Positions 1,675-52,380 of a DNA stretch of 64,000 bases are shown one piece after another (within the stretch, counting starts at the first letter, position 1; the number at the start of each line of letters is the position of its first letter). The notes below the pieces were generated by a model that was not told where the DNA came from, ran no database searches, and saw only the letters and a list, made by a program, of their open reading frames with translations. The position numbers and the translations under genes were made by a program. The DNA comes from a virus. Its lineage: Duplodnaviria; Heunggongvirae; Uroviricota; Caudoviricetes. The DNA lies in IMG/VR virus record IMGVR_UViG_2706795377_000001, positions 52,360-116,359 of that record; one strand, 5' to 3'.

Positions 1675-3096
1675 ATGGACAAATATGTTCCTATTATAAC
1701 TAGTCAAGCTAATGCTTCGGAGTATGGAGGTATTGATAACTTTACTGTTTACTCTTCAGGAAATTACAATAAAAGCACTTACCCTAGAGAGATACTTAAT
1801 CGAGATAATCAAGTTGGTTGGGGGAGCAAAACAGGTGATAGACTTGCATGGGTTAGAGTTTTATTTCCACATGTCTACGCTCCAAGAAAGTTTACTATGT
1901 CTACTCCAATTGATGTAGTAATGACAAAGCGAACACCAACCAAATTTAAAATATATGGTATTCGTGAGAATTATCGAAACGTTCATGAGGCATATCAATT
2001 GAGAGCAGATACTTCAATTACTGTCGAACCTGATTGGGCTGGTGCAGACTTGCTTCTTGATGTGAATGAGGGGGAAGGATTTTGGAGTCCAAACCAAACT
2101 AAAGAATGGATAATCAATAAAAGCAATAAAAAGTACATCGGCTTCTATGTTTACATGTATGGGAAAGAAGAAGCTTGGACAGGTACTATGGAGTACTTCA
2201 TTGGAGAAGTTCAGATGTACACATATATTAATGATGAAAAGGATGTTGCGCTGATTAAAAGAAGTGTGGATGGCAAGTATATCTCTATTCAGAAGAACAG
2301 GCTTCATGCAAATCTATTTTCTGTAAGAGATTTGCATGAAGAAAGAGAAAGGTTTTACACTTTTAAATCACAAAGAAATATACGTTCTCCCTTTAGGGTG
2401 TATTTGAATGGAGCAGAAAATTTCTATATATTTAGCGAGACAGCTTACACGAAAGGAAAGTGGTACTATGAAATAAGAGTGTCTTCGGGAGATTCGAATT
2501 ATGGGCAAGCCACATACCATATGCTTGGATGGCACAGCAAAAGCGATATTGAGAACGTTGTGATTCCATATGAAGGCGATGGAGTTTATTTGTTTTGCGT
2601 AAATGGTAATTTATATGGAGCAATTGAACGAAAAGTAGATTATCAATATACCAAAAATACAAGTATGGTTGATAGAATTGGAATTGCTATAGATTTAGAT
2701 AATGATTATTTTGAAGTGTATTATGATGGTGCTTCACAAGGGAAAGTTAAAATGCGTTCTATGGGGAAACCTCTTGTTCCAGTTGTTGGATGTGGTTCAA
2801 GTAGTGTAGGTGAGGTTACTCTTGTTGACAATCCAAAATACCTACCAAAAGGATATAAAAACATTGTGAGAAAGCGAGATTACGAAGATATTATTGTTAG
2901 ATTTGAAGATGCCCCAACTGTTGATGATTATAAGAAGTATGGCGTAAAAGAAGGGGAGTCAATAGAATTTGACAAGCCTTATAACAAATTGAGGGTGTTT
3001 ACAGAAGCTACGATAAATACAGCTAATGGGAAGATTCATTCGTTTAAAATTGTTCCTAGCGCTGAAACAATTAATAAAGTTAGGATTGAGGTGTAA
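1675..3096 (+). CDS. Phage structural protein with galactose-binding-like and SPRY/B30.2-like segments
   Basis: 473 aa. RBS AAGAGGTGA. N-terminal part LAWVRVLFPHVYAPRKF is discoidin-like. Central part GKWYYEIRVSSGDSNYGQATYHMLGW..GVYLFCVNGNLYG..IGIAIDLDNDYFEVYYDG matches the SPRY domain pattern. Confidence 0.45.
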   Translation: MDKYVPIITSQANASEYGGIDNFTVYSSGNYNKSTYPREILNRDNQVGWGSKTGDRLAWVRVLFPHVYAPRKFTMSTPIDVVMTKRTPTKFKIYGIRENYRNVHEAYQLRADTSITVEPDWAGADLLLDVNEGEGFWSPNQTKEWIINKSNKKYIGFYVYMYGKEEAWTGTMEYFIGEVQMYTYINDEKDVALIKRSVDGKYISIQKNRLHANLFSVRDLHEERERFYTFKSQRNIRSPFRVYLNGAENFYIFSETAYTKGKWYYEIRVSSGDSNYGQATYHMLGWHSKSDIENVVIPYEGDGVYLFCVNGNLYGAIERKVDYQYTKNTSMVDRIGIAIDLDNDYFEVYYDGASQGKVKMRSMGKPLVPVVGCGSSSVGEVTLVDNPKYLPKGYKNIVRKRDYEDIIVRFEDAPTVDDYKKYGVKEGESIEFDKPYNKLRVFTEATINTANGKIHSFKIVPSAETINKVRIEV

Positions 3097-3098
3097 TT

Positions 3099-4745
3099 AT
3101 GATTCGTCAAACGTACTCTCATGGTTTTAATAAAACACTTAATGCTGTAATAAACTATTCAACAGATTGCATGTATTTGATAGAAAGACCTTTTGATTTA
3201 TTGTCGAATGCAATTTTAAGAACTATTAAACTCGTTGGTTCACCAACATATAAAACTCCAAAAATAAAGATTGCTATTTTCGAGGAGACAAACAAATATA
3301 AAGAGTTTAGAATTATTTGGATTGGCGAAATTGTAAATGATGGAAAGTACGGAGATAGCATTTATTATGCTGAGAATCTAAATGTTCAATGTCCAAATAA
3401 TGTTTACGTTGGCGTCCTTTACGAAAGAGGAACAAATCTTAATAAAAACACGCTCTTCGTAGATTCAAGTCAAAACACTTGGCACAATAGATATACAACA
3501 AAATTTAATTTTTCAGACTTTAAAGAAGGGTTTCTGTTCGACACAAAAGTTGATGGCGCAAGAAGTGATTATCACTTTCCTTTACAATTTGAATTTGATA
3601 TGAAAGAAGAACCAAAGGTTTTATTCCAAGATGAATCTACAGAATACAAAGTATTCAAGCCAGAACGATATGAAAATATAGCAAATGTTACTATGAATAG
3701 CACTCATATTTCAAGTAGTGGAACACATGAAAACCATCCAAATACGCTCTGGAATTTATTCGATGAAAATGACAATACTTTTTGGATAAGTTCAACTGAA
3801 ACGACATTTCCTAAGTATGTAAAATACGATTTTGGCGTACCTACAACTCTTGATAGATTTGAGATGACACCAGCAAAATCGCCTGTTCATGGTCAAAATG
3901 ATTGGGGGATTAGAAGTTGGACTTTGTATGGCTCTAACGACGATGTTTCGTATAGAGAGGTATTTAAGTCAGATATAACAACATCTAATAAGAATCTTGA
4001 CCAGTACAATTATGCGAATGGAAATGGTTTGAGGTTTGTTAATTTTATTAACAGTAAGCCTACATTCAGATATTTTAAGGTCGAGTTCAAAGACACTTAT
4101 GTAAGTGCAATACCATACAGTAACATTATTGCTATTCAACATATGCGATTTATGAAGTTGCGCGAAAAGACTTGGGAATCAATTGGGGTAGATGTAACCG
4201 AATCAGACTTTATCAATTATGGTATGACTATTGATGAAGTTGAGAATATGACAAATGAAGATTTTAATGAATTGCAAGGTAATTACACAATACAAGTATT
4301 TGTTGAAGATGCTAATTTAGATAAAATTTCAATTGTTAAAGAAACAGAAGAACAAATTTGGTTGAGGAATGAAACAACTGACGAATTCGATGTTGTTAGA
4401 TATACAGAAAATATTTATCTTGAAGAAGCCAAATATATTATTGATAATGGAAATAAAACATTAAAGGACTACTTCAACACAGTTGATGTGTCTGTTTATA
4501 CAGAGGAACCGAATCCAACAAAAAAACAAATTGAAATAAATCAACAATATAGCCCATTAGATGAATTAAGTGGCGACATTGAAATGTATGAATACAGCGA
4601 TATTGATTTAGCCAGAAGCCCAAAAGCTGATAAATCAATATTTGAAGAAGATTATACCCATTCAATTAATGGCGCATATGTAGATAGTGTTGAAATCAAT
4701 TTGAATGATACGAAAGGAAAGGCTAATAGGATAATTAACCCATAA
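3099..4745 (+). CDS. Phage structural protein with F5/8 type C (discoidin)-like domain
   Basis: 548 aa. RBS GAGGTG, and the ATG overlaps the previous stop. Segment NTLWNLFDENDNTFWISSTETTFPKYVKYDFGVPTTLDRFEMTP is typical of a discoidin/galactose-binding fold. Confidence 0.45.
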   Translation: MIRQTYSHGFNKTLNAVINYSTDCMYLIERPFDLLSNAILRTIKLVGSPTYKTPKIKIAIFEETNKYKEFRIIWIGEIVNDGKYGDSIYYAENLNVQCPNNVYVGVLYERGTNLNKNTLFVDSSQNTWHNRYTTKFNFSDFKEGFLFDTKVDGARSDYHFPLQFEFDMKEEPKVLFQDESTEYKVFKPERYENIANVTMNSTHISSSGTHENHPNTLWNLFDENDNTFWISSTETTFPKYVKYDFGVPTTLDRFEMTPAKSPVHGQNDWGIRSWTLYGSNDDVSYREVFKSDITTSNKNLDQYNYANGNGLRFVNFINSKPTFRYFKVEFKDTYVSAIPYSNIIAIQHMRFMKLREKTWESIGVDVTESDFINYGMTIDEVENMTNEDFNELQGNYTIQVFVEDANLDKISIVKETEEQIWLRNETTDEFDVVRYTENIYLEEAKYIIDNGNKTLKDYFNTVDVSVYTEEPNPTKKQIEINQQYSPLDELSGDIEMYEYSDIDLARSPKADKSIFEEDYTHSINGAYVDSVEINLNDTKGKANRIINP

Positions 4746-12789: not shown

Positions 12790-13491
12790 ATGCGTTGTAG
12801 TAAGTTGTTTAGTCTTCTCATGTCTATTGCTCTAGTTTTTTGTCTATCAGTAGGTGTTTCCGTTGCAAAAGAGAAAGAAAATCCACTAGCTACACCTGAG
12901 AATTACGCAGAATATCTTGCAAACTACGATAAGGTAGAGGCATTAAGATTAGGCGTTGACCCTGCATATGCAACACAAGCTGTACAGGATGCTAAAGATG
13001 CTTTGGAAGATTTTCAAGCAATGTCAACTGAGAATCAGAAGAAATTACTAGAATACATGCAATCTCCAAAAATATTGGAACAATCATTTACAAGTGTAAA
13101 AGTCGAAAAAGTCCAAAAGCAAGAATTGATTTCTGATTATGCTCTGCAACCACAAGCCAGCACGAAACGTGTTAGCCATGAATACAAAATGACTCTGTTA
13201 GGTGTTGATTGGACAGTCTACGTCGTAGACGGCAAATATGAATATGACAAAAAAGGAGCAACAAAAGAGTTAGGTGCATCTGGTTATGTCAAGAAAAATT
13301 TGAATCCTTTGGTTCAGACTTCGAAAACATCTGAATATGATGAAGTAATTGGTGGTACTTATTATGGAACTGCTGTATTCGATTATAAAATCGGTCCATT
13401 AGATGGGTTAAGCTATCAAATTGGCTCTGCCTACTGCCGAGTAACAGGAGACGAGGGCGGTAAAACAGGTGGAAGAGGATGGACAGAGTAG
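12790..13491 (+). CDS. Secreted hypothetical protein (signal peptide)
   Basis: 233 aa. RBS GGAGGTAGGA. N-terminal signal peptide MRCSKLFSLLMSIALVFCLSVGVSVAKE. No enzymatic motif recognised. Confidence 0.5.
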   Translation: MRCSKLFSLLMSIALVFCLSVGVSVAKEKENPLATPENYAEYLANYDKVEALRLGVDPAYATQAVQDAKDALEDFQAMSTENQKKLLEYMQSPKILEQSFTSVKVEKVQKQELISDYALQPQASTKRVSHEYKMTLLGVDWTVYVVDGKYEYDKKGATKELGASGYVKKNLNPLVQTSKTSEYDEVIGGTYYGTAVFDYKIGPLDGLSYQIGSAYCRVTGDEGGKTGGRGWTE

Positions 13492-13497
13492 TAAGGA

Positions 13498-13605
13498 GGT
13501 TGTCGTGAGTAAGAAGCTGAAAATCGTACTGTGGTCAATTGCAGGGGTAGTTGTTTTATTTAGTGCAATAGGAATAATTACTTTCATGCAAGGAAAAGCA
13601 TAAAA
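13498..13605 (+). CDS. 35-aa single-TM peptide
   Basis: GTG start. RBS GTAAGGAGGTTG at 6-nt spacing. Encodes VSKKLKIVLWSIAGVVVLFSAIGIITFMQGKA. It follows the secreted-protein gene directly, so it could be an immunity or accessory peptide. Confidence 0.3.
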
Positions 13606-13640
13606 TGAGGCAGAGTTTATTCCTGCCTCATTTTATTTTA
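13604..13640. terminator. Rho-independent terminator between convergent genes
   Basis: Stem AATGAGGCAG/CTGCCTCATT followed by TTTTATTTT. Confidence 0.6.
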
Positions 13641-13670
13641 AAATATGTAAATTTACAAAAAGAATATTCT

Positions 13671-13859
13671 TTATGGATTTGATGATGGCTTAGACTTTAA
13701 GATATGTTCCATTTGTTCCTTGTCAGTATAAACATCATATTTGCTCTTTTCATGACTTCCACACGATTTAGAGCCTGTTACAATTAAAAAAACCACAAAG
13801 ACCACGCCAACCCAACCCAAGAAACCTAAACCTTGTTGATTTTGTTTCTCTTCGTTCAT
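13671..13859 (-). CDS. Small membrane protein (62 aa), type I toxin-like topology
   Basis: The internal ATG at 13859 has RBS GAGGGG. Upstream is an extended -10 element TGGTATAAT (minus strand, about 13895-13903). Product MNEEKQNQQGLGFLGWVGVVFVVFLIVTGSKSCGSHEKSKYDVYTD... has a single TM helix. Confidence 0.4.
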   Translation of the reverse strand: MNEEKQNQQGLGFLGWVGVVFVVFLIVTGSKSCGSHEKSKYDVYTDKEQMEHILKSKPSSNP

Positions 13860-14016
13860 ATTAACACCCCTCAATCATTAACAAACACCATAAATCCTAC
13901 TTTCTGCCATTATACCATTTTCTTTGAACGTTATATATACAATTGGCTTTTTAAAGAAAGGGTATCCGAGGAATCAGTACTTCATTTGCTATCGGAGGGA
14001 AAAGCCTCTTAGTTTA

Positions 14017-14045
14017 AATGAATTACTTGTCATGGAAAATGTTAG
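14017..14045 (+). promoter_or_regulatory. Sigma-A-like promoter (TTGTCA-17 bp-TATAAT)
   Basis: TTGTCA at 14017-14022, a 17-nt spacer, then TATAAT at 14040-14045. No protein-coding ORF follows. Confidence 0.5.
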
Positions 14046-14051
14046 ATGATA

Positions 14052-14236
14052 TAATAAGAGTACCAAAGCCGAACATCACCGTCAGTGTTTGATGTACTGA
14101 CATGATGCCTTGTAGGTGTTGGCGCACCTACGGTTTATACAATAGACTGTCCCCAATGGGGCGGCTCATTCTGAATACTGTGATGTAAGACCGCTAAAGC
14201 TTCTGAGGACTCGATGGCGGTCTTACTTTTTATTTT
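14052..14236 (+). ncRNA. Candidate small non-coding RNA (~185 nt)
   Basis: Runs from the predicted +1 to an intrinsic terminator (GTAAGACCGC...GCGGTCTTAC + TTTTTATTTT at 14185-14236). It contains several internal hairpins (GTCAGT/ACTGAC, GTAGGTG/CACCTAC) and only trivial ORFs of 15 aa or fewer. Confidence 0.3.
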
Positions 14237-14640
14237 AAATCACTTACAACCCATTTAATTATAGCTATCTCTTACTTGGTACTGTAAATGATATTAATTC
14301 CAAATAAGCAATTTTCATTAGATTGCTTTATGAAGGTTAGTATGTTAAGTTAACAGTAGTCAATTTAATAATCGCTGTAGTTAACAAAGCGAAACACCTA
14401 AAGGGTAGACCACGGAATAGTGGTCTATTTCTTTTTTAGTGAGTATTTATTGAGTCCGATAATAAAGATTATGTAAACTTATAAAATTTAAGTGAATGGG
14501 TATAGACGTAAGATATATTATGTTAACATTAAAAAAGTATATTAATAAAGTTTACATACTTTGGAATATATGATACACTTAAATCAATATGTAGTGTCTA
14601 CTTAGACTCTCACAACAATATATAGAAGGTGGTCGAGATT

Positions 14641-15234
14641 ATGTTAATGTTGAAAATGCAATTGGAAGACTTAAAGAAACAAATTGAGGACGCATACGCA
14701 GAAATTTCAAAGAAAAGGCTTCCGAAAATTGAAAAAAGTATTGAAATGGCAAACAAAGAGTTTGAGGAATACTTTCACTCTTTAGGATTTTCGACTTCTA
14801 CTAAAAATGAAGTAGAAGTTTCTGACGGTGTTAGATATAAGAAAAAAATTATTGAAGCTACGTACCATAATTTATCCTATTCTCTAGTTACATATGAAGC
14901 TTCTTACCCTTTTTTTGGAAGCCTATCAACATTATTTCTTTACGATGACCCTCGTAGAGATGAAGATAATGAGTATGTTATTCTTATCAATCAAAGTGGT
15001 AAGTCTCCGAGAGCTTCTTTCACTTGCTACTCTATCCCTGATGATGAGGCTGAAAAAATAAGAATTGAAGTTAATCGGAAGGAAGAAGAGCTTCAAGGAC
15101 TTAGAAATAGATTGAATAGTATTGATGATTTAAATTTAAACTACTTTTACAAAGATGCGGATGCTTATAGCTTAACTGAATACTCTTCTTTTAAAGAAGT
15201 TCTTGTTAAATTAGTTAACTCAAATAGCATATAA
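14641..15234 (+). CDS. Hypothetical protein (N-terminal coiled coil), isolated accessory gene
   Basis: The ORF-track start is 14629 (GTG). The ATG at 14641 has RBS GAAGGTGG at 8-nt spacing. It is flanked upstream by about 750 bp of non-coding DNA and downstream by a terminator. Confidence 0.45.
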   Translation: MLMLKMQLEDLKKQIEDAYAEISKKRLPKIEKSIEMANKEFEEYFHSLGFSTSTKNEVEVSDGVRYKKKIIEATYHNLSYSLVTYEASYPFFGSLSTLFLYDDPRRDEDNEYVILINQSGKSPRASFTCYSIPDDEAEKIRIEVNRKEEELQGLRNRLNSIDDLNLNYFYKDADAYSLTEYSSFKEVLVKLVNSNSI

Positions 15235-15249
15235 GCAGATACGAAAAAT

Positions 15250-15292
15250 AGTCCATTAGCCTTGTGTAATGGATTATTTTTTTATTTAAACA
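15250..15292. terminator. Putative bidirectional terminator
   Basis: Short stem CCATTA/TAATGG with an A-run before it and a T-run after it. Lies between convergent genes. Confidence 0.35.
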
Positions 15293-15320
15293 GAATCGTC
15301 TCTAGCATTATTTTGTAGAA

Positions 15321-15956
15321 TTATTTAAAGTAAGGATATTGGATTTCTTCAATATTGTAAGTCTCTCCTAGTTTTCCAACATAGGTTGCCCTTTCCCACA
15401 GGGTTTCGACAGGATAGTTAGACATTCTTGCAACCCATTCGTTAAATTGCTCACTAAAATGAGGATTAATAATAGCTCTTGCCCAAGACGATTTACAAAT
15501 CTGAATCATTTTGAGAGGAAGGTTGCATTCTCTTATTGCTTTTAGAACACCAGTATCACTGTCAATTAAGAAGATGGTAAGTATATTATTCGTTTCGGTA
15601 AATTGCAAGGCTCTGTTGTCACTGTAAAGTGTAGGGTCGAATACCATTTCGAATGTCATGGCGTTGCCAAATTTAATCATAGGTATAACCATATGGTCAT
15701 TTCCTTGAAGGATACGCATTGATATAGATGACTCTTTGAAAGTTTTTAGCTCTTTAAAGCTGATACTTGTGAAATGAATGCAAAAGAAGTAACCTTGATT
15801 TAAATCAGTAGCTTCAAAGTGCGCTCCATCTTTTCCCTTTAAACTTTCTGTACTGCCCGAAAAAAGTGGGAATTTCTGACCTACTCTAATGTCATATAAT
15901 TCTATTTCTTCATTCTTAGAATCCATTTTTAAGACATCCTCTCTAATTAGATTCAA
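15321..15956 (-). CDS. Hypothetical protein
   Basis: 211 aa, last gene of the leftward block. Confidence 0.45.
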   Translation of the reverse strand: MNLIREDVLKMDSKNEEIELYDIRVGQKFPLFSGSTESLKGKDGAHFEATDLNQGYFFCIHFTSISFKELKTFKESSISMRILQGNDHMVIPMIKFGNAMTFEMVFDPTLYSDNRALQFTETNNILTIFLIDSDTGVLKAIRECNLPLKMIQICKSSWARAIINPHFSEQFNEWVARMSNYPVETLWERATYVGKLGETYNIEEIQYPYFK

Positions 15957-16039
15957 CCCCTTTGTAGATTATACTTAGTAAGCTAAAACCTGTCAAACAC
16001 CAAGCTACAATAAAAAGAGACTACCAAAGTAGTCCCAAT

Positions 16040-51861: not shown

Positions 51862-52380
51862 TTAAACTGTGACATGTTTCCATCTTTTCCCTCTCTTGAT
51901 GAGAGAAACATGTTTATGAGATATGCCAAATATGTTCGCCACATCAATGTTCTTTACTCCATTTTTTAGAAGTGTTTTTATTTGTTTCACAACATCTTCA
52001 TCAAGAATCGCCATTGAGTTTTTGCTTCCCAAATTAGAATCAAGACCTAATCTAAACTTGTGTTTTTGATTTTCCTCTACAGTGACAAGTTCAAGATTGT
52101 CTTTCCTATTGTCTGTCTTGATGCCATTCTTGTGATTTACGTCAAGCTCTTCTGATAAACTATCTAATCCATAATAGACAGCATATAGTAATCTGTGTTG
52201 ATAAGCTATATATCTCTTTCTATTGACTGTGACTCCTATTTGCAGATATCCTGTTTTATGTTTTGCGTTTGCTTTCTTCCCGTTTGAATAGTGTATAACT
52301 CCACTTTCTTCATCCACAATTAGGTTGCCATTTTTGATAGCTTCGATAAAATGAACTAACTTGCTATCATTCGGTTTCAC
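51862..52380 (-). CDS. HNH homing endonuclease with C-terminal HTH DNA-binding module
   Basis: 172 aa. GYLQIGV...HRLLY...VNHKNGIKTDNRKDNLELVT is an HNH_3 signature. It is inserted between the helicase and primase genes. Confidence 0.65.
   Translation of the reverse strand: MKPNDSKLVHFIEAIKNGNLIVDEESGVIHYSNGKKANAKHKTGYLQIGVTVNRKRYIAYQHRLLYAVYYGLDSLSEELDVNHKNGIKTDNRKDNLELVTVEENQKHKFRLGLDSNLGSKNSMAILDEDVVKQIKTLLKNGVKNIDVANIFGISHKHVSLIKRGKRWKHVTV

Follow-up and report, generated by a model that had tools for sequence, protein, structure and literature searches.

The stretch of DNA analysed here, a window of 64,000 nucleotides (nt) that comprises positions 52,360 to 116,359 of the IMG/VR virus record IMGVR_UViG_2706795377_000001, contains, between the gene for a 62-amino-acid (aa) protein and a gene at 14641-15234, a predicted small RNA (sRNA) gene with a truncated toxin-like open reading frame (ORF) on its opposite strand. 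Positions 13600-14640 of the window are 100% identical to Brevibacillus phage Sundance (KT151959), the window position being the record position minus 52359. Sundance is a 134-kb siphovirus of B. laterosporus (PMC4909266). Among its annotated products are YonK-, YonG-, YonF- and YomH-like proteins, a transglycosylase labelled 'SPbeta phage protein', putative integrases and a ParA-like protein. On one side the locus is flanked by lysis genes (the amidase gp59 and the small genes after it) and on the other by oppositely oriented replication genes (RusA and DNA polymerase III alpha). An earlier reading of this DNA, made from its letters only and called the sequence-only reading below, had proposed an SPbeta-type phage, a guess that the SPbeta-like annotation makes reasonable; the phage is Sundance and not SPbeta itself, for which no nucleotide similarity was detectable (blastn of the locus matched Brevibacillus phages only).

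The sRNA gene lies on the plus strand and is delimited by a sigma-A-type promoter, which matches the consensus at 11 of 12 positions and predicts a start near 14060-14062, and by an intrinsic terminator that a simple scanner skipped on account of its long loop (Table 1). Promoter sites with at least 11 of 12 matches are not very rare, eight being present in the window as compared with 4.2 +/- 2.0 in shuffled sequences; when the TG extension is required as well a single site is left, 0.23 being expected, and it sits directly upstream of the conserved RNA. The 175-nt RNA 14062-14236 folds at -59.2 kcal/mol (z = -3.7), with 0 of 200 shuffles as good. In the sequence-only reading the near-consensus TTGTCA-17-TATAAT promoter had been recognized and placed at 14017-14045, which is 10 nt too low, the terminator had been located correctly, and the hairpin-rich transcript between the two, which does fold better than shuffles, had been given a length of ~185 nt where ~175 nt is predicted. 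The statement that it has no ORF longer than 15 codons was wrong, as a 28-codon ATG ORF is present at 14102-14188 (+), its start codon within a leader specific to Sundance. We have rejected this ORF as coding, since it has no Shine-Dalgarno sequence, is absent from canonical copies of the RNA and is cut to 10 codons in one Sundance-like element (L019, see below), and the sRNA is best read as non-coding.

Table 1. Positions of the features at the Sundance locus, in window coordinates.
Feature	Position	Strand	Details
Sigma-A-type promoter of sRNA	14027-14055	+	-35 TTGTCA 14027-14032, 17-nt spacer, extended -10 TGaTATAAT 14047-14055 (TG 14047-14048, TATAAT 14050-14055)
Predicted SR4-like antitoxin sRNA, ~175 nt	14062-14236	+	leader hairpin, two internal hairpins, terminator hairpin
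Leader, Sundance type only	14062-14110	+	hairpin 14074-14107; antisense of codons 1-14 of a Hol_Tox toxin gene
Conserved core	14111-14233	+	hairpin 14112-14131 (10 bp), single-stranded UACAAUAG, hairpin 14149-14162, CGGCUCA, variable linker (14166-14184), terminator
Intrinsic terminator	14185-14236	+	12-bp stem 14185-14196 / 14215-14226, then UUUUUAUUUU to 14236
Complement of sRNA core	14111-14236	-	corresponds to 3'-untranslated portion of a bsrG-like toxin transcript, without 5' untranslated region and ORF
Truncated bsrG-like (Hol_Tox) ORF, 26 codons plus stop	14103-14026, stop to 14023	-	MSVHQTLTVMFGFGTLIISSNIFHDK; antisense to sRNA leader and promoter
Weak promoter-like site TTTACA-19 nt-TATAAT	14288-14258	-	read from sequence; -35 reads TTTGCA (weaker) in L019
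ORF of 62-aa membrane protein	13671-13859	-	TGGTATAAT; extended -10 box at 13917-13909

Relatives of this RNA were sought with several kinds of query. The 3' two-thirds of the Sundance RNA are homologous to two elements in phage Emery, and further copies came to light with a degenerate core pattern, in four IMG/VR contigs, three plasmids and one chromosomal contig of B. laterosporus and a plasmid of B. halotolerans. An exact 22-mer search of IMG/VR gave 0 matches, as did a pattern for the toxin 5' coding region, and a GC-rich locus (L005) was discarded as a chance match of the degenerate core pattern. The comparison loci that were fetched carry L-numbers, with L002 standing for Emery, L003 for Jenst, L004, L006 and L009 for IMG/VR contigs, L008 for the B. 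laterosporus chromosomal contig and L011 and L012 for plasmid copies; L018, L019, L020 and L022 are Sundance-like elements and L017 is a more distant relative. A profile search (nhmmer) found more than 25 sRNA copies in all fetched loci; phages Powder and Jenst have one copy each as well.

The core, which makes up the 3' ~125 nt of the Sundance RNA, is 92-94% identical to copies L006a, L004a and L007a, with an exact run of up to 58 nt, and the core of L018 is identical at 121 of 123 positions to L006a, the cognate antitoxin of the MAVTHETLSLLFQFGG... toxin of L006. Outside the Sundance group 14 of 19 copies have a perfect TATAAT 1-2 nt before the conserved AAAAAGACC with which the core begins, and UACAAUAG and CGGCUCA are invariant in the family. 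In a consensus structure built from 22 copies, 90.7% of the cells form standard pairs as compared with 27-53% when the partners are slid; compensatory changes occur at 12 pairs and the covariation score was reached by 0 of 500 shuffles. For the terminator stem compensatory changes across the family are found at 7 of 10 pairs. Many of the pairs are G-U and would be mismatches on the other strand, so that the sRNA strand is favoured over its complement. The element is conserved in both sequence and structure, and the proposal of an sRNA, for which such conservation had been named as the test, is borne out in this respect.

In Rfam scans of the locus itself the plus-strand RNA matched no curated family, either at the gathering score or at E values up to 10 in the sRNA interval; no hit reached the gathering score over all 64 kb and nothing significant was seen at E up to 10 on 13000-15500. 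The window contains no tRNA or tmRNA. A riboswitch or leader, a retron noncoding RNA and a P1 c4 / P4 CI-like immunity RNA were considered and rejected, since a gene in register downstream, a reverse transcriptase and an Rfam match are all lacking. The first scans were empty because Rfam has no separate model for antitoxins of the SR4 type, and the link to BsrG, the toxin mRNA of SPbeta's type I toxin-antitoxin system bsrG/SR4 (PMC3834814), surfaced only with the scan of a complete module from a related locus.

At the complete loci the sRNA faces a convergent hydrophobic Hol_Tox ORF of 27-36 aa, whose stop codon falls within the sRNA terminator; such a convergent toxin, overlapping the sRNA by about 120 nt with its 3' end and 3' untranslated region, is present in L004, L006, L007, L009, L013, the second Emery copy, Powder and Jenst. 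The relatives' toxins score 44-51 bits against Pfam Hol_Tox (PF16935, cut-off 23.3) and resemble the NCBIfam PepG1 and ComI models, and the toxin strand of L009 matches Rfam RF01412 (BsrG) over its full length with 134, 120, 73 and 66 bits (cut-off 55), a fifth match scoring 51. The toxin peptide of the L006a type is MAVTHETLSLLFQFGGFIVALLGLVVTIVVALTKKK, and the toxins of intact modules whose antitoxins are 92-94% identical to the Sundance core are of the type M[AV][VI]THETLSLLFQFGG... When the 27-aa Emery toxin was used in tblastn it matched SPbeta-like phages at 44% identity, and intact homologues were found in 9 of 10 sequenced B. laterosporus phages, Sundance being the exception; tblastn with a 36-aa toxin found staphylococcal PepG1-like loci only. 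Judged from this architecture and homology the family RNAs are SR4-type antitoxins. The bsrG/SR4 family is already known and the B. laterosporus modules are new members of it. The sequence-only reading had suspected a type I toxin-antitoxin-like locus, and the sRNA gene does belong to a type I family, one first described in SPbeta; the partner that had been proposed for it, the 62-aa protein, was the wrong one.

The SR4 promoter is stronger than that of the toxin (PMC3834814). The terminator loop of SR4 makes the first contact with the toxin mRNA, pairing tightens a structure that hides the ribosome-binding site of this mRNA, and SR4 both triggers RNase III-dependent decay of bsrG mRNA and blocks translation in B. 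subtilis, where the toxicity of the peptide has been shown as well (PMC3834814). In the B. laterosporus modules the 5' untranslated region (UTR) of the toxin resembles the sRNA core and is thereby able to pair with the 3' UTR of the same toxin. Being part of the Rfam BsrG consensus already, and published as the P1 helix of bsrG mRNA (PMC3834814), this pairing was dropped as a novelty.

The Sundance locus departs from the canonical arrangement in its toxin, its promoter and its leader. No Hol_Tox ORF lies downstream of the Sundance terminator, the family homology ending at the terminator U-run, and the full 134-kb genome contains neither a second sRNA copy nor a Hol_Tox-like ORF besides the one of 26 codons. 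The minus strand scores 19.2 bits against RF01412 (E 0.013, gathering score 55) and is well aligned only to about model positions 140-259, the 3'-UTR part. The canonical promoter and the A-run before the core, found in copies that have no leader, are missing, and the RNA would start ~48 nt further upstream. Positions 14060-14103 are 84% identical to the annotated 'putative holin-like toxin' gene of the B. halotolerans plasmid, on which a divergent sRNA of the same family lies ~95 bp after the toxin start; a similar toxin in L009, MSVYEALMVMFAFGTFIIALIGLFYKMTKK, sits in a tandem array. It is inside this toxin-derived DNA that the -10 box of the Sundance sRNA lies, the Ile-Ile codons ATT ATA reading TATAAT on the other strand, with the -35 box beyond the homology breakpoint. 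The promoter is identical in L018, L019 and L022, and promoter, leader, core and terminator are kept in all four Sundance-like loci that cover the region (L018, L019, L020 and L022). In L019 promoter and leader differ by 2 changes in 84 nt as compared with about 10 in the 66 nt just upstream, counted on the alignment. Retention of the sRNA with decay of the toxin is also seen in L008, where the toxin has lost its 5' half (2680-2720), and in the first Emery copy.

We consider it probable, at roughly 0.6, that Sundance has kept the SR4-type antitoxin sRNA gene of a bsrG/SR4 module without a working toxin, of which a stump is left, and that the RNA is an orphan antitoxin. In canonical modules the sRNA that converges on the Hol_Tox gene is complementary to ~125 nt of the 3' UTR of the toxin mRNA. 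The Sundance locus would be what remains of two such neighbouring modules, and the simplest account is a deletion between adjacent modules that brought the beginning of toxin n up to the sRNA of module n+1. In this way one toxin gene would have kept about its first 18 codons, and the sRNA of the following module, still complete, would have come to lie 7 nt away, with the loss of the second module's toxin and of the rest of the first toxin plus its 5' UTR and promoter. A new near-consensus promoter, built partly on former toxin coding sequence, would then drive the sRNA. We take the locus to be new in this combination, an RNA like SR4 whose promoter has been rebuilt and whose leader is chimeric, accompanied by no more than a toxin stump.

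An RNA of this kind would in cis silence any minus-strand transcript by pairing, and in trans it could pair with the nearly identical toxin-mRNA 3' UTRs of co-resident B. laterosporus prophages and plasmids. Given that the core is 92-94% identical to the antitoxins of intact modules, pairing with their toxin 3' UTRs, including the terminator loop, would be near perfect. Our hypothesis is that such an antitoxin-only element protects the phage or the lysogen from toxins of co-resident elements. The chimeric leader is antisense to codons 1-14 of a second type of toxin (MSVY...), a second class that it might block at the start codon. For other types of toxin-antitoxin system anti-addiction has been discussed, an antitoxin without a toxin allowing escape from killing by another element's toxin (PMC12548467), and the Sundance element would be the RNA counterpart of such modules. 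The more specific proposal, which we put forward tentatively and hold to be well short of an even chance, is that Sundance-type phages carry the toxin-less SR4-like RNA, with its very strong promoter, as an RNA antidote whose core acts on resident bsrG-like toxins and whose leader acts on the second class, an anti-addiction or anti-abortive-infection device.

Several observations weigh against an orphan antitoxin, most of them in connection with the 26-codon ORF, toxin-related sequence antisense to the 5' end of the sRNA that the sequence-only reading had overlooked. The alternative is a live type I pair of rearranged geometry, in which the 26-aa Hol_Tox peptide is functional and transcribed from the promoter-like site at 14288-14258, and in which the sRNA covers the toxin's whole 5' UTR, ribosome-binding site and first 14 codons, as in Ibs/Sib, and not its 3' UTR; we regard both the live pair and this geometry as unlikely. 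The ORF passes the Pfam Hol_Tox cut-off with 30.4 bits (cut-off 23.3), gene callers likewise called it as a Hol_Tox gene in L018 and L019, and the peptide is identical in all five Sundance-like copies (Sundance, L018, L019, L020 and L022). The changes within the ORF of L019 are two synonymous substitutions and a stop-to-stop replacement (TAA to TGA), a pattern that could reflect purifying selection on a live peptide. The presence of Ser and Asn within the short helix does not exclude membrane activity. Canonical modules have a U-run that would terminate minus-strand transcripts behind the first core hairpin; Sundance lacks it, so that read-through into the ORF is possible, and a strong antitoxin promoter opposite a weak toxin promoter is usual for SR4/bsrG (PMC3834814). 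To these points must be added that we infer expression of the sRNA from sequence signals and that a toxin-less antitoxin could be a neutral remnant without function.

Other properties of the ORF speak against a live toxin. Only residues 1-19 align to the Hol_Tox profile, at positions 1-19 of 34, and the toxin DNA homology spans approximately codons 1-18 and ends there. The best 19-residue hydropathy is 1.28, as compared with 2.2-2.8 in intact toxins, and the longest apolar run is 15 residues as compared with 18-20. The C-terminal tail, HDK, has a net charge of 0, whereas 7 of the 8 intact toxins compared, most of them with tails of the KKK/KRK type, carry +2 or +3 (the B. halotolerans copy has -1). 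Pairing of the Shine-Dalgarno sequence (AAGG) with the anti-Shine-Dalgarno sequence is worth -2.8 kcal/mol; four intact B. laterosporus modules reach -14.7 to -21.5 kcal/mol and the B. halotolerans copy -6.3. The start codon is buried in a stable 13-bp hairpin. The only candidate promoter for the ORF is the site at 14288-14258, whose 19-nt spacer kept it off the list of the promoter scanner and which is weaker still in L019; a minus-strand promoter-like site near 14255-14290, giving an RNA fully antisense to the sRNA, had been noticed in the sequence-only reading, and such a site does exist. The pattern in L019 is explained equally well if other toxin copies have served for gene conversion or if the sRNA leader is under constraint, and conservation of the peptide argues only weakly for a live toxin because the changes are few and gene conversion is evident among the copies. 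As judged from these sequence properties, the 26-codon ORF is most likely a dead relic.

An orphan antitoxin has also to be distinguished from an inert wreck, in which both toxin fragment and sRNA are decaying leftovers of modules gained by recombination and, whether the RNA is made or not, have no role for the phage. Decayed modules are common in the family, as L008, the first Emery copy, L011 and L012, all without a canonical toxin 5' UTR, and a relic in Jenst illustrate, and the locus lies in a variable accessory region that is filled by other genes in L017. We nevertheless find this reading quite improbable. The near-consensus extended -10 promoter was not inherited, an argument for expression having been regained once the rearrangement had taken place. 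In all Sundance-like copies core, terminator and promoter have stayed intact next to flanks that have diverged, and the core is 92-98% identical to the antitoxins of intact modules.

The least tenable account, largely refuted by the data, is the original one, that the sRNA is the antitoxin of the 62-aa protein or regulates the gene at 14641-15234: the genes lie near one another and the 62-aa protein does have one predicted transmembrane segment and its own extended -10 box, as described in the sequence-only reading, and a good ribosome-binding site, but 62-aa gene and sRNA are divergent with non-overlapping transcripts, their complementarity does not exceed that of shuffled sRNAs (z = +1.1 for the full mRNA and -1.1 for the translation start region, the duplex predictions being crude for such long RNAs and used only for comparison with shuffles), the protein matches no family, toxin families included, in Pfam, NCBIfam or PHROGs, and for the leader of 14641-15234 complementarity is again not above chance (z = +0.4), with two terminators lying between. 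The more distant relative L017 has an 82%-identical 62-aa protein, yet neither the sRNA nor a Hol_Tox ORF, other genes filling the region, and therefore the 62-aa gene is not tied to the RNA; Jenst, in turn, has a homologue of the 14641-15234 gene together with its upstream region and no adjoining sRNA.

B. laterosporus assemblies contain exact copies of the 62-aa protein. One of these lies on a contig (L018, assembly GCA_050461465.1) whose length, 136 kb, is that of the phage, which suggests persistence of Sundance-like elements in cells. At 13600-13636, between a small gene that ends at 13603 and the 62-aa gene, there is a bidirectional terminator of 15 bp. On the other side of the sRNA the segment 14237-14382 has no match in the phage collection besides the Sundance records and is common to Sundance-like prophages, and the 258 bp that follow (14383-14640), upstream of 14641-15234, share 86% identity with Jenst and SecTim467, neither of which has an sRNA next to them; a terminator-like hairpin is found at the start of this segment (14403-14430, +). 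The gene 14641-15234 itself belongs to PHROG 22061, to which PHROGs assigns no function. Further along, a perfect 12/12 sigma-A promoter at 15968-15996 (-) stands ahead of the minus-strand gene 15321-15956.

The family copies also differ among themselves in ways that are worth recording. Sundance and L018 differ in the 19-nt linker 14166-14184 by 5 substitutions and 1 indel, the other ~540 nt being identical, and the first Emery copy (L002 ~3040-3060) is a mosaic of the Sundance and L018 linker versions. This pattern looks like gene conversion among family copies, and it possibly affects target specificity. In L019 the first core hairpin of the sRNA is present twice, owing to an insertion of 33 nt at ~3690-3730 (minus strand of the locus). 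In the plasmid copies L011 (1600-1767) and L012 (1568-1792) the canonical toxin 5' UTR has been replaced and the sRNA is intact. A decayed module in Jenst (L003 1206-1328; record ~66014-66136) consists of a partial sRNA match (E 2e-6) and a Hol_Tox-like stump and adjoins the inverted repeats that delimit the 'putative transposable region' of Jenst and SecTim467 (Berg et al. 2016); these repeats may be hairpins of toxin-antitoxin remnants.

Modules of the bsrG/SR4 type are often found in tandem, with five in L009 (6717-9132), three in L006 (4864-8561) and two in L004 (2939-5914), each with its own sRNA and a diverged toxin type. One sRNA subtype, GACYGCTGGTGCTGCAA...TACAATAGTCTGTCCTTTCA (L007 208-340, +; L010 1635-1814, +), converges on no toxin, lying between two same-strand toxin genes in L007 and divergent from the toxin in L010; its action may be in trans, or it may be a further orphan. 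Between the two Emery modules (L002 3190-3240), in a lysogeny region near an XRE regulator and an integrase, there are direct repeats of TTTCGTATTATTTCGTA which could be protein-binding sites. The B. laterosporus phages with an intact bsrG-like toxin are Emery, Jimmer1/2, Powder, Osiris, Davies, Abouo, Jenst and SecTim467, and in their records these toxins are mostly unannotated or labelled hypothetical; Powder and Jenst were checked (L023 1405-1704; L024 983-1207) and carry complete toxin-plus-sRNA modules. Two annotated proteins fall on the RNA genes, the GenBank coding sequence SUNDANCE_65 (41 aa, window 13924-14049, +), which overlaps the sRNA promoter and the relic ORF, and Emery gp51 (L002 2975-3058, +), which lies within an sRNA, and both are probably spurious protein calls.

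Type I modules of prophages are usually discussed as prophage stabilisers or as suicide devices against infecting phages. In the host-phage community of B. laterosporus modules of the bsrG/SR4 type abound, frequently as tandem arrays, and one phage lineage appears to keep the antidote RNA only, with a stronger promoter, and if this RNA protects phage or lysogen from the toxins of other elements it would amount to RNA-based counter-defence within type I systems. The literature searches made here found no report of an orphan type I antitoxin sRNA in a phage. Even on an ordinary reading of the locus, an unannotated antitoxin sRNA family is defined, Rfam modelling the toxin strand only, probable spurious protein calls in the Sundance and Emery records are corrected, and an example is provided of a promoter rebuilt from former coding sequence.

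Among known systems bsrG/SR4 is the one that the Sundance RNA resembles in most respects. SR4 is 183 nt long, with four stem-loops and 123 nt complementary to the toxin 3' UTR (PMC3834814), to be compared with ~175 nt, also four stem-loops, and ~125 nt complementary to a toxin 3' UTR in Sundance; both have a strong promoter, the related B. laterosporus modules match RF01412 over its full length and the carrier phage has SPbeta-like annotations. Unlike bsrG/SR4, Sundance has no convergent toxin, its minus strand scores only 19 bits on RF01412, and the source of its leader is the antisense of the 5' coding region of another toxin. The txpA/RatA system of the B. subtilis skin element and the TxpA/'holin-like toxin' family (Fozo et al. 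2010) share with the present modules a small hydrophobic toxin, a convergent sRNA over the toxin 3' end and residence on mobile elements (PMC2887945), and differ in that no Rfam family but BsrG came close and, again, in the convergent toxin that Sundance does not have. The ibs/Sib pairs of E. coli, in which the antitoxin fully overlaps the toxin ORF, would be comparable only if the relic ORF were live, the sRNA then lying over the 5' UTR and start codon; the sequences are unrelated, the toxin family is another one, and the overlap in Sundance would have arisen by deletion between two modules. The pseudo-ToxI RNA of phage PhiTE counters the type III ToxIN system. This RNA and the chromosomal anti-addiction antitoxins differ from the Sundance RNA in being type III RNA repeats or proteins, and what they have in common with it is a mobile element that retains or imitates an antitoxin and has no toxin.

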